From: Candidatus Brennerbacteria bacterium RIFOXYC1_FULL_41_11
Lineage (GTDB): Bacteria; Patescibacteriota; Minisyncoccia; UBA6257; Brennerbacteraceae
Length of the DNA: 64,000 bases
Assembly: GCA_001817215.1 (NCBI GenBank)
Contig: MHHX01000019.1
Span: forward strand, 16,302 to 80,301
Reading direction: 5' to 3'
This document shows, piece by piece, positions 35,339 through 37,607 of the stretch. The notes below the pieces were generated by a model. It ran no database searches. It saw nothing but the letters and a program-made list of their open reading frames with translations, and was not told the origin of the DNA. Every line of letters begins with the position of its first letter. The first letter of the stretch is position 1. A program made the translations under genes and the position numbers.

Positions 35339-35587
35339 GGCCCTATCGTCTAGCCCGGTCTAGTCATGCCAGCGGCAGATCCGCCTTTGGCGGAGACATC
35401 GCCCCTTTCACCTGTCAAAATTTTAATTAAAATTGAGTTATCTCATGGCGCTATCGTCTAGCCCGGTCCAGGACGCTGCCCTCTCACGGCAGAAACACGA
35501 GTTCAAATCTCGTTAGCGCTACATGGTTAAAAATTAGGTGGGCGAGCGGCGAATCCGCCAGCTGGCGCACAAGTCCCGTTAGGGCTA
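35339..35587 (+). pseudogene. Interrupted tRNA-Glu(TTC)-like gene with insertions in the D arm, anticodon arm and T arm
   Basis: 5' part GGCCCTATCGTCTAGCCCGGTCTAG..GACATCGCCCCTTTCAC and 3' part GGCGA..CAAGTCCCGTTAGGGCTA; acceptor halves GGCCCTA/TAGGGCT pair. Confidence 0.7.
35447..35521 (+). tRNA. tRNA-Glu(CTC)
   Basis: GGCGCTA/TAGCGCT acceptor, CTGCC-CTCTCAC-GGCAG, ACGAG-TTCAAAT-CTCGT. Confidence 0.95.
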
Positions 35588-35588
35588 C

Positions 35589-35616
35589 TTGACAAAGAAT
35601 CAGTATTTGCTATAAT
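35589..35616 (+). promoter_or_regulatory. Consensus sigma70 promoter
   Basis: TTGACA-16 nt-TATAAT with extended TG. Confidence 0.8.
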
Positions 35617-35629
35617 ATAAATACAATTT

Positions 35630-35923
35630 ATATAAAACATCCCACGGAACCTTAGGCGAAGTGGGGAAGTGGAGTCACGATCCATGATGTTGCCTCGCAA
35701 AATCGGGGACGGAAGCTGAACCGTAATTAATCCAGCAAGCGGTGTCACTGTAGATTACAACTGGCGTTTACGCTGAGCGTAGTCGAAGCGCGGAGCCGAC
35801 CAAAGAGCCATGACTTTTAATGGAGTTATGGAATGAGGATGGGACCGCGGGAGGTCTCTTTTTTTATAGTCTCTCGTTCCTTGCTTACTACTTTTGTAGT
35901 AATTGAGGAACGAGAGGTTTTTT
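35630..35923 (+). promoter_or_regulatory. T-box riboswitch (transcriptional; probably His-specific)
   Basis: GCTGAA apical loop near 35715; AAAGAG then stem III at 35808-35831; GAGGA-TGGGACC-GCGGGAG pairs with CTCTCGT-TCCTT; competing terminator 35871-35916 plus T6. Confidence 0.78.
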
Positions 35924-36020
35924 GATTCTTCGCGGAGTGAAGAATCAACCCTGAGCGTAGGTAGCCACGCTTGGCGTGGCGTAGTCGAAGGGTGTTTACC
36001 TTTCGTAGAAGGAGGCGTTG

Positions 36021-36104
36021 ATGAGTAAAATACATCGCGCATTTGGAGGGTCTGGCCCTCACGGTTTTCGTCGGGAAAGATTTGATCAGTCTTTCCCGAT
36101 GTGA
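36021..36104 (+). CDS. Possible 27-aa peptide MSKIHRAFGGSGPHGFRRERFDQSFPM
   Basis: AAGGAGG SD at 36009-36015; stop 1 nt before tRNA-His. Confidence 0.3.
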   Translation: MSKIHRAFGGSGPHGFRRERFDQSFPM

Positions 36105-36105
36105 T

Positions 36106-36178
36106 GGTCTCTGTAGCTCAATAGTAGAGCGTTGCTCTGTGAAAGCAATGGCTGGGGGTGCAAATCCCCTCAGAGACC
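36106..36178 (+). tRNA. tRNA-His(GTG)
   Basis: Encoded G-1 opposite C73, GTCTCTG/CAGAGAC, TTGCT-CTGTGAA-AGCAA; atypical T loop TGCAAAT. Confidence 0.9.
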
Positions 36179-36323
36179 CAAAATGCAAACTGCTTTGCAT
36201 TTTATGGGATTTGCAAGCCGGAGTGATATTTAACTTGCGTATGGCAAGTTAAATCACGAGGCGGGATCGCGGCAAAATTTTCGGAAGAAAATTTTAGCTG
36301 TGACCAAATCCCCTCAGAGACCC
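36161..36323 (+). repeat. 19-bp duplication of the tRNA-His 3' end flanking a 125-bp hairpin element
   Basis: CAAATCCCCTCAGAGACCC at 36161-36179 and 36305-36323. Confidence 0.85.
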
Positions 36324-36328
36324 TGGGC

Positions 36329-36492
36329 TGTGGATGTTTTATTTTTCTGCCGGCTTCGCCCCGTTTTACGGGGCTCGTCAACTTACTCCAGCGGTAAGTT
36401 GTGGCCTGTTCTCTCGCCTCGACGGCCCTTCGACTGCGCTCAGGGACCAAGCCCGTCGGGGTTCCGAGAACCAGAAAAACAAAACATCCACA
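36329..36492. mobile_element. MITE-like element with 21-bp terminal inverted repeats
   Basis: TGTGGATGTTTTATTTTTCTG / CAGAAAAACAAAACATCCACA (1 mismatch) enclosing hairpins and a REP copy; no target-site duplication seen. Confidence 0.5.
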
Positions 36493-36519
36493 AATCCTAT
36501 TAAACAAAAAATAAAAGAA

Positions 36520-37440
36520 ATGAGCTACAAAAACAAAAAATTGAAGAAGGTCAGATTTAATCAACTCAAAAGGTCGATCGGGTTGATTAAAATTGCTCTT
36601 TGGAAAAAAATCAAAGTTCTTTTGCCGAAAAGAAAGGAGACAGCCGTGTTGAAACAAACAGTTTTTCTGATGCAGGATTTGAGACTGTTGGCTGAACGAG
36701 TCAGGGAGAATAACAAGAAAATTCAAACCTGGGTTGATAAGTATATTGAGGAATGTATTTTGGTTGGTAAACCGGTACAGATCTTGACTCAGTGGTGTTT
36801 TTCGCTTGACTTTGAGGTAAGGTTGCAAAAACAAGGTGGGAAGTTTGCGCCGACAAAAACAGAGCGAGAACTGGTTTTCAAATGGTTCCCGACTGTTCTG
36901 GAGGTTTTCGAAAAGAGGAATGTGCCAATCAATTGGATTGTTACTTTCAATCGATCCTATCTCGACAGCGGCAGGCTGGAACCAGAGACAGAAAGGGCTT
37001 ATCAGGAGATGGTTCAGGGATTGTTTGATGAGGCTGGTTTATCCAGCAAGATTCTTCTTTGTAATTGGGAAGACGATGTTCTTCTGAAAAAACCGGAGCC
37101 AGATAAAAATGTTCTTGAGAATCTGGGAGAATTTTTGGTTCCAGCCGCACTCCAAATTGTTTTTAATCAACACAAGAGCTGGGCCCTGGGAGAAGCCGGG
37201 CTCAAGCAAGCAGATGAAGAACTGTGGCAGGACGTGAAGTTCCAGATTGCTTGTGAAGCTGAAGAAGGCAGGTTCCTTTGCGATTCGGAAGAATCGCCGT
37301 TGAGTGAAGGCAAGTTCATCCTGGTTCCCTTGGAAGTCGCCGAGAGGTATAATCCAACGTTCTTAATTCTTAATCCTGAATTTGAGGAAAGGATTGCTTC
37401 GTTGTTGCCGCCATATCCTTGGCGTATGACTGAAGAATAA
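36520..37440 (+). CDS. Uncharacterised alpha/beta protein (306 aa) downstream of T-box and tRNA-His
   Basis: ATG at 36520 after an A-rich leader; globular composition; terminator follows. Confidence 0.8.
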   Translation: MSYKNKKLKKVRFNQLKRSIGLIKIALWKKIKVLLPKRKETAVLKQTVFLMQDLRLLAERVRENNKKIQTWVDKYIEECILVGKPVQILTQWCFSLDFEVRLQKQGGKFAPTKTERELVFKWFPTVLEVFEKRNVPINWIVTFNRSYLDSGRLEPETERAYQEMVQGLFDEAGLSSKILLCNWEDDVLLKKPEPDKNVLENLGEFLVPAALQIVFNQHKSWALGEAGLKQADEELWQDVKFQIACEAEEGRFLCDSEESPLSEGKFILVPLEVAERYNPTFLILNPEFEERIASLLPPYPWRMTEE

Positions 37441-37442
37441 TA

Positions 37443-37472
37443 TAAAAAACCGCCCAAAAGGGCGGTTTTTTA
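37443..37472 (+). terminator. Intrinsic terminator
   Basis: TAAAAAACCGCCC-AAAA-GGGCGGTTTTTTA. Confidence 0.85.
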
Positions 37473-37607
37473 CTGCCTTGAAAAAACAACGCCGGTTATT
37501 TTCTCAAGGCACGGGGGTAAGGAGGAAATCCCCCGTGCGCATGTAAAGAGCTGTTTTCAATTATAGCATACTTTTAGCCCTTTTCTTGGTGATATAATAC
37601 ATGAAAT

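Follow-up and report, generated by a model that had tools for sequence, protein, structure and literature searches.

In a 64,000-nucleotide stretch of contig MHHX01000019.1 from Candidatus Brennerbacteria bacterium RIFOXYC1_FULL_41_11 (hereafter the window), part of a genome assembly of 22 contigs and 608 kb, we find a compact transcription unit in which a T-box leader is followed by a 27-codon mini-gene, a tRNA-His gene and an open reading frame (ORF) of 306 residues and no named family (36520-37440). The unit is closed by a terminator hairpin (37442..37473) like that after the gene in most relatives, and its features lie on the forward strand, apart from this hairpin and the insertions described below, to which no strand is assigned. 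Judged by sequence comparison, it is a terminator-closed cassette headed by a histidine sensor and consisting of a peptide gene, an optional extra tRNA-His and an enzyme, and this cassette is a system without a known counterpart. No account of it, or of a T-box before a tRNA gene, was found in the literature searched, most subscription journals lying outside that scope, and TBDB and its supplements may list these T-boxes. A first-pass annotation had proposed a loop in which uncharged tRNA-His induces more tRNA-His and a partner protein; the mini-ORF (36021-36104), a second tRNA-His in the genome and an internal Shine-Dalgarno sequence with GTG start (36634-36648) were absent from it.

The T-box leader of the window

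Transcription is expected to start at a sigma-70-type promoter (35589..35616; TTGACA-16-TATAAT with a TG extension, score 12/12) with the same hexamers and spacing in L108, a locus of a same-genus genome in which the leader also stands behind tRNA-Tyr and tRNA-Glu genes, and which provides the comparison for all covariation reported here, judged from two sequences only. A scan from the leader terminator to 36520 detected no other promoter-like site. The very short stem I (35636..35691) is composed of a basal helix, a variable inserted hairpin that differs in L108 and an apical hairpin (35669-35685; GTGGA-GTCACGA-TCCAT) that is identical there. It is followed by stem II and the IIA/B region (35693..35745), supported by the Rfam alignment and by five of five compensatory pairs in stem II, with stem IIA unchanged; by a variable linker with a small palindromic repeat (35746..35790); and by stem III (35808..35831), in which two of ten pairs show compensatory and three show one-sided changes. 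All 12 pairs of the antiterminator (35835..35882; GAGGA-TGGGACC-GCGGGAG / CTCTCGT-TCCTT, -10.4 kcal/mol, UGGG bulge at 35840-35843) are unchanged in L108, and this structure overlaps an intrinsic terminator (35871..35923), the two being mutually exclusive; the terminator stem (35871-35916) has -27.9 kcal/mol and is followed by a T tract. A UGGN antiterminator exclusive with a terminator, together with covarying stems II and III, places the leader among the T-boxes, and the canonical long stem I (AG box, GNUG loop) is absent from both the window and L108 and present in 12 relatives. The promoter, stem III, the antiterminator and terminator, the G-1:C73 tRNA-His, the ORF and the end hairpin had all been recognised in the first-pass annotation and are borne out here.

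This is not the case for the specifier, which had been placed, with stated uncertainty, at a CAC in the linker (35746-35748) that is not conserved, the sequence reading TGTCACTG in the window and TGTCGTCC in L108. Because that CAC is lost and the apical hairpin is unchanged, the CAC at 35676-35678 in the apical hairpin, kept in L108, is the likely specifier. The proS T-box of the same genome and the aspS and proS T-boxes of relatives are built alike, by eye, with the cognate codon in a small loop. The fit of the UGGG bulge to C73 had been taken as evidence for histidine; this evidence is weak, since seven of the 12 related His T-boxes carry UGGA and the discriminator base is not used by TBDB for His T-boxes in the accessible part of its description (PMC7778990).

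Some observations stand apart from this argument. Patescibacterial T-boxes with a very short stem I and a terminator were seen before proS or aspS at C22:4727-4889 of the same genome (L001) and at L109-L114; the aspS T-boxes among the latter show AAC or GAC in the loop, which suggests a non-discriminating AspRS. Small palindromic repeats (CTGAGC...GTCGAAG, five copies in the genome) and a duplicate of the tRNA-Glu 5' end are inserted within the leader and around it (35339-35363, 35770-35790, 35949-35992 and 36426-36445).

Sensors, mini-gene, tRNA and enzyme across relatives

Two scans for the enzyme gave 35 + 62 = 97 loci, of which 73 are distinct once duplicates are removed, or 74 with the window, and the mini-gene motif described below is present in 58 of these, window included. 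After exclusion of six loci with short upstream DNA, the remaining 52 comprise 12 T-boxes, 25 leader ORFs with a pair of His codons and 14 YerC/HisR genes with His-rich tails, so that 51 of 52 carry a histidine sensor, and the last (L090), left unassigned, has HisR further upstream. GAA-CAC is found in 12/12 of the related T-boxes, and a His-pair ORF in 39 of the 40 loci without a T-box, as against 12.5% of 698 random positions. One representative YerC protein matches TIGR02531 (E 1e-20), and of the 16 HisR-type loci checked, 13 have upstream of them the HisR operator consensus cacTTTA-n6-TAAAgtg, as given in the available part of PMC9413887. In a tree built from 46 family-A enzymes, from which loci with unknown sensors and short sequences were excluded, sensor type changes at least 10 times, the minimum being 2 and the mean after shuffling 19.9; the sensor types thus appear clustered but repeatedly swapped, with histidine specificity constant. 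What the cassettes share is a histidine sensor, the mini-gene and the enzyme, the tRNA being optional. The linkage that the first-pass annotation expected among homologues is conserved, with a tRNA in 46 of 58 mini-gene loci, but the T-box part of it is limited to 12 of 52, most loci having His-codon attenuators or HisR in its place. On this evidence, control of the cassette by histidine starvation is well supported and very probable.

Patescibacteria are unable to make most amino acids, and hisG was found in none of the five cassette-bearing genomes searched, this one included, in line with the histidine auxotrophy presumed earlier; hisS is present at a contig edge of the genome, the known HisRS being of class II. 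The named homologues of the protein encoded at 36520 belong to Patescibacteria/Parcubacteria, in which the cassette is rare (1/400 phylum genomes and 4/300 order genomes; 2/400 class genomes with the second profile) and its genomic contexts are varied. Two complete T-box cassettes are held by one genome (L012 and L018). Relatives of the enzyme were not found in the viral contigs, annotated phages and plasmids searched, and because BFVD gave no match at E<=0.001, the label 'Uroviricota' of the ESM Atlas was set aside.

The mini-gene begins with the Shine-Dalgarno sequence AGGAGG (36010-36015; whole feature 36010..36104), and the first 14 residues encoded in the window end in AFGGSGPH, with the His codon CAC at 36060-36062. 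Its consensus is (S/A)(F/L)GGxGP-His, and most of the 16 enzyme loci without the motif are cut by contig ends. Among the 62 mini-genes used for statistics (the 58 plus four that later searches added), 58 have CAC as their His codon, Gly codons vary synonymously, and S/A stands at -7 in 59, L/F at -6 in 62 and P at -1 in 52, these positions being free of the search pattern for 58 mini-genes, with L/F and P imposed for the other four. Conservation is thus at the amino-acid level and reaches up to the His residue, past which nothing is conserved; a stop codon follows His directly in 6/62. Just past the His codon and directly before the tRNA lies a hairpin (36070..36100), and across loci a hairpin or the tRNA itself mostly starts ~7-17 nt 3' of CAC, a distance near the leading edge of a ribosome. 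That this hairpin is a terminator was considered and rejected, a T tract being absent in most loci. In L023 and L075 a variant SLILEGPH lies within a 145-residue ORF (L023:4541-4975) with a HisR attenuator upstream and the enzyme downstream, the mini-gene of L080 is divergent and that of L098 is apparently disrupted. Upstream of position 1336 in L098 only a tRNA 3' remnant and foreign genes are seen, a picture that integration of an element into the cassette tRNA would give, and extra DNA or ORFs separate the sensor terminator from the mini-gene in L029, L037, L050, L066, L082 and L090.

The tRNA-His(GUG) of the window (36106..36178; G-1 at 36106, body 36107-36178, C73) has a cloverleaf, A37, a D-loop AG and a T-loop UGCAA, and CCA is not encoded. 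It is not the only tRNA-His of the genome, as the first-pass annotation had wondered, but an extra copy next to a housekeeping gene on contig C18; of the 17 genomes examined, 13 proved to have a tRNA-His apart from the cassette, two of these 13 on a pattern match alone and three of the four negatives having been searched by a narrower pattern only. Among 48 distinct cassette tRNAs, 47 have the anticodon GUG and one GUU, and 44 have G-1:C73, three C-1:G73 and one G-1:U73. HisRS is expected to charge a C-1:G73 tRNA poorly, and the loci with this pair carry the peptide GGQGDH in genomes that also hold a normal tRNA-His. The GUU tRNA (L092:1255-1327) has an otherwise His-type body with G-1:C73 and may be a recoding variant or else the product of mutation or faulty assembly. 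A link to queuosine was dropped, since it rests on this one locus of 48 and tRNA-guanine transglycosylase (TGT), present in 4/5 genomes, shows no positional link; the TGT match of the window's genome (C3:25642-26745) has one internal TAA and may be broken or frameshifted, as in G005. The same genome holds a tRNA-Ile with UAU anticodon (C21:11833-11906), and an ARAGORN listing of its assembly includes neither tRNA-Cys nor tRNA-Asn. The ATG of the enzyme lies within a few bases of the tRNA 3' end in most relatives; in the window it is distant because two small insertions (36161..36492) separate them: in one, the tRNA 3' end is duplicated (36161-36179 / 36305-36323), and the other is an element with a 21-nt inverted repeat (36329-36492). 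An alternative 368-residue reading from 36334 crosses this element, is not conserved and was discarded.

The enzyme consists of a basic N-terminal segment (36520..36645, in frame, with a predicted helix at residues 3-34) and a core of 264 residues (36646..37440), which could also be started internally from a GTG (36646-36648) preceded by AAGGAG (36634-36639). The segment, of ~40 residues, is common to both enzyme families at tRNA-bearing loci and goes together with the tRNA: both occur at 39 loci and neither at 15, the four loci that seem to have only the tRNA carry another basic extension, and at the one extension-only locus a tRNA 3' remnant is found. The window enzyme belongs to family A (84 close homologues and 59 clusters at 50% identity); at L108, L103 and L115 the same peptide, tRNA and N-terminal segment stand before a family-B enzyme (84 homologues), so that in the same-genus L108 a different but homologous enzyme follows a leader, peptide and tRNA as in the window. 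The two families are related at an hhalign probability of 99.4%, helped by the shared N-terminus, and have the same predicted fold. At L117:1224-3279, two distant paralogues lie in tandem behind an attenuator and a HisR gene that has a His tail, with neither peptide nor tRNA; like families A and B, this pair keeps Cys (rarely Ser) at the end of strand 1 and has no ATP motifs.

Searches of Pfam, NCBIfam and PDB sequences gave no family for either enzyme, and neither PF16715, which also has no match in the window's genome, nor, in hidden Markov model searches with the families, PF05141 was matched. In the predicted model of the window enzyme (pLDDT 92), the isonitrile synthase PvcA is the best structural match, as it is for both families, at 10-16% identity, followed by cyclodipeptide synthases (CDPS) and TyrRS catalytic domains. 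By prediction, the fold is thus a Rossmann domain of the PvcA/CDPS/TyrRS type without ATP motifs, the TyrRS match stopping before the ATP loop and the anticodon domain, and the chain ending after the catalytic domain. HIGH and KMSKS are the motifs of class I aminoacyl-tRNA synthetases; a HIGH/KMSK-like string occurs only in P0170 among all the proteins collected, and the enzyme has neither these motifs nor an anticodon-binding domain. A Cys at the end of strand 1 (Cys93, codon 36796-36798, in the window) is conserved in 51/51 family-A and 68/69 family-B proteins and is a candidate nucleophile; Ser takes its place in the one family-B protein without it, as in three distant members of A. In CDPS the nucleophilic Ser stands after strand 1; with regard to the CDPS catalytic set (Ser, Tyr, Glu, Tyr), a Cys/Ser after strand 1 is seen, and by eye no conserved Tyr occurs at the expected fourth place. 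An S26C variant of a CDPS stays active, according to the part of PMC7613923 available.

Histidine is the most depleted residue in both families, at 0.31x (A) and 0.11x (B) of the genome level taken from 347 long ORFs, of which 12% and 4%, respectively, are as low, members of a family being kin and not independent; the window protein has a single His and 48 of 69 family-B proteins have none. In contrast, six CDPSs of the candidate phyla radiation (CPR) show no depletion (1.23x). Depletion of the cognate residue marks proteins needed during starvation. No downstream gene family recurs in more than five loci, and no conserved transporter, peptidase, tailoring or export gene was found beside the enzyme. 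That family A is often next to hisS was likewise not upheld, a clear hisS being found in 2/80 loci and a weak 31% match in one more, many flanks being short. Six true CDPS genes (PF16715; L121-L126), with no adjoining tRNA, were noted in 300 class genomes.

Possible role of the cassette

We tentatively propose that the cassette responds to histidine shortage and that its enzyme would move an aminoacyl group, by way of a Cys thioester, onto its own tRNA(GUG), so that ribosomes could pass His codons with a substitute amino acid; we hold this to be possible, with somewhat less than an even chance. The opening step, deduced by comparing sequences, is very likely: uncharged tRNA-His would pair with the CAC at 35676-35678 and with the UGGG bulge and so block the terminator, a task that His-codon attenuators or HisR would perform in relatives. 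The mini-gene may then act as a second checkpoint, for which we see an even chance; a ribosome waiting at CAC would leave the hairpin and the tRNA folded just past its footprint, and read-through would invade both. It is somewhat probable that the tRNA is next excised and that translation of the enzyme starts either at the ATG by the tRNA end or at the internal site, the long form bearing the basic helix, which probably binds tRNA. By analogy with CDPS, an enzyme without ATP-binding motifs may finally take an amino acid from another charged tRNA and hand it to the uncharged tRNA(GUG), the chain as a whole remaining a tentative construction. Transfer of a substitute amino acid is favoured because it needs no ATP and would explain a dedicated and sometimes HisRS-orthogonal tRNA, the basic helix and a benefit in starvation. 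Put broadly, the cassette might be a mobile kit of Patescibacteria for recoding under histidine starvation. It would combine an ATP-independent tRNA-to-tRNA aminoacyl transferase derived from class Ic synthetases, and available in two or more enzyme families that can replace each other, with a tRNA(GUG) that is orthogonal in some cases and a checkpoint at the nascent peptide, leading to deliberate mistranslation of His codons, a picture that is possible and still speculative.

Several findings weigh against this proposal. The tRNA is missing from 12 of 58 mini-gene loci that keep sensor, mini-gene and enzyme, and since 44 of 48 cassette tRNAs keep normal His identity, HisRS could charge most of them without the enzyme. 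The three C-1:G73 loci are close kin (L016 and L017 are sisters on the tree, L014 lies outside it), and this pair therefore probably reflects one event. The top fold match, PvcA, is not a tRNA enzyme, its substrates being a free amino acid and ribulose-5-phosphate in the available part of PMC7949033. Because hhalign profile alignments to CPR CDPSs are non-significant (1.6% and 2.8% probability), the equation of Cys93 with the CDPS serine is drawn from strand position only, nor do alignments fix how the second catalytic helix is to be registered. Family A has an invariant pair, E246/E249, spaced as the E171/E174 through which ParcuCDPS selects His (PMC7613923, in part), and this would fit a histidine substrate. 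The role of the conserved peptide residues is left unexplained, RF00230 matches the leader weakly (21.8 bits, E 0.017), and the 7-nt specifier loop could also present ACG.

The last two points bear on whether the window T-box is degenerate or reads another tRNA (Thr through ACG in the same loop, or Gly through GGT), which we consider improbable and which would be compatible with any of the other readings. The leader has no match at the RF00230 gathering threshold of 93 bits, stem I is non-canonical and, by eye, the T-box before proS in the same genome shows its Pro codon at loop positions 4-6, which here read ACG. The Rfam check that the first-pass annotation had called for gave an ordered match over 35617-35884, however, and its cut-off is strict, since 9/9 relatives' loci tested score 33-77 bits, also below 93, and just 2 of 14 control genomes pass it; the aspS T-boxes place cognate codons at loop positions 3-5, by eye, and match UGGN. 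Compensatory changes against L108, the mismatch of UGGG to the ends of the genome's own tRNA-Thr and tRNA-Gly, and the histidine specificity of all other sensor types on the cassette likewise speak against this reading. With a His-specific T-box heading tRNA and ORF on one transcript, part of the loop first proposed is supported. What does not hold is an increase in tRNA-His as the core of the system, the enzyme being a mere passenger or serving to mature or repair tRNA: a T-box with CAC upstream of tRNA-His would suit it, but the tRNA is an extra copy (in 13/17 genomes examined), 12 of 58 loci keep peptide and enzyme without it and most loci have no T-box, while the enzyme is strongly His-depleted and preserves a putative nucleophile; we give this explanation little chance.

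Two further explanations are close rivals of the proposal. True loading of histidine onto the cassette tRNA, the amino acid being either salvaged where it occurs activated or blocked (as histidyl ester, N-acyl derivative or cyclic dipeptide, or on a carrier derived from the host) or attached by a second, class-I-fold histidine-charging enzyme, would account equally well for His depletion and would suit G-1:C73 in 44/48 tRNAs and the resemblance of E246/E249 to the ParcuCDPS pair (PMC7613923, in part), and control by HisR, T-box or attenuator is typical of histidine supply genes in the portion of PMC9413887 available. The absence of HIGH/KMSKS, a TyrRS match that ends before the ATP loop and anticodon domain, the lack of a conserved transporter or peptidase beside the gene and Y/Q at the E246/E249 sites of family B, which thus has no acidic pair, make this rather doubtful. 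Transfer from a peptide bond to tRNA is, moreover, energetically uphill without ATP. A biosynthetic role in the manner of CDPS or isonitrile synthases, yielding a small molecule or a modified GGxGP-His peptide for signalling or metal binding in starvation, the peptide possibly being modified as peptidyl-tRNA-His paused at the hairpin, is unlikely, even though both families find their closest fold match in PvcA, the ESM Atlas points to CDPS and to DIT1_PvcA (for A in 11% of one cluster, for B in 86% of a cluster at score 0.90), and the peptide is conserved to His, free beyond it and in 6/62 loci stopped there. It would use up His-tRNA during His starvation, which is self-defeating; tailoring and export genes and matches to PF05141 or PF16715 are absent, and the related two-gene operon under HisR has no peptide. 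Resistance to HisRS inhibitors was rejected as the main role because HisR operators imply sensing of free histidine.

Whichever explanation applies, the cassette offers a compact handle on how Patescibacteria survive amino-acid shortage. It shows a tRNA gene under T-box control, T-boxes of Patescibacteria that act on transcription with a very short stem I, a new leader peptide that closes with His, and an enzyme branch, likewise new, that lies between PvcA, CDPS and TyrRS. Should substitute-amino-acid transfer be correct, it would amount to a regulated bypass of a sense codon through an aminoacyl transferase of a new type, and to a natural enzyme-tRNA pair possibly useful in genetic-code engineering; histidine salvage would instead mean that His-tRNA can be made in a new way, by an enzyme with a class I fold.

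Comparison with known systems

The leader shares stems II, IIA/B and III, the UGGN antiterminator and the overlapping terminator with RF00230 T-boxes and the His T-boxes of Firmicutes, and 12 relatives have the canonical stem I with GAA-CAC, but the genes under its control, in Patescibacteria, encode a tRNA, a peptide and an uncharacterised enzyme and not a synthetase, a pathway or a transporter. The class II T-boxes of actinobacterial ileS have their specifier in the small apical loop of a short stem I. The window leader shares this arrangement and differs in its transcriptional output, His codon and extra stem I hairpin; an ultrashort stem I is described for these ileS T-boxes in the accessible part of PMC11297988. 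The corresponding part of PMC7778990 ties short stem I to translational T-boxes in TBDB, in contrast to the very short stem I and transcription terminator found here. HisR (YerC) operators and His-rich leaders such as those of PMC9413887 head many cassettes, although the targets given in the part of that work available are biosynthesis and transport genes only, and the word Patescibacteria does not occur in the paper.

Among enzymes, CDPS (PF16715), especially ParcuCDPS (PMC7613923, in part), which uses His, are similar in that their Rossmann catalytic domain lacks both ATP motifs and an anticodon domain, in a Ser/Cys after strand 1 and, for family A, in acidic residues on a long helix. The cassette enzyme matches them neither in sequence nor by profile, shows no catalytic Tyr of the Y202 type that could be recognised, extends further at the C terminus, where it ends in YPW, and has a dedicated tRNA under starvation control, no tRNA being found near the six CPR CDPS loci. 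PvcA/IsnA (PF05141) is the best structural match over most of the chain for both families, but identity is 10-16%, there is no Pfam match, partner oxidase genes are absent and the context is linked to tRNA. The class Ic synthetases TyrRS and TrpRS share the fold of the catalytic domain, unlike the HIGH/KMSKS motifs and the anticodon domain, which the cassette enzyme lacks. Finally, pylTS is a synthetase-plus-tRNA cassette and, as here, an enzyme is encoded with its own tRNA, whereas the tRNA of the present cassette reads ordinary sense codons.

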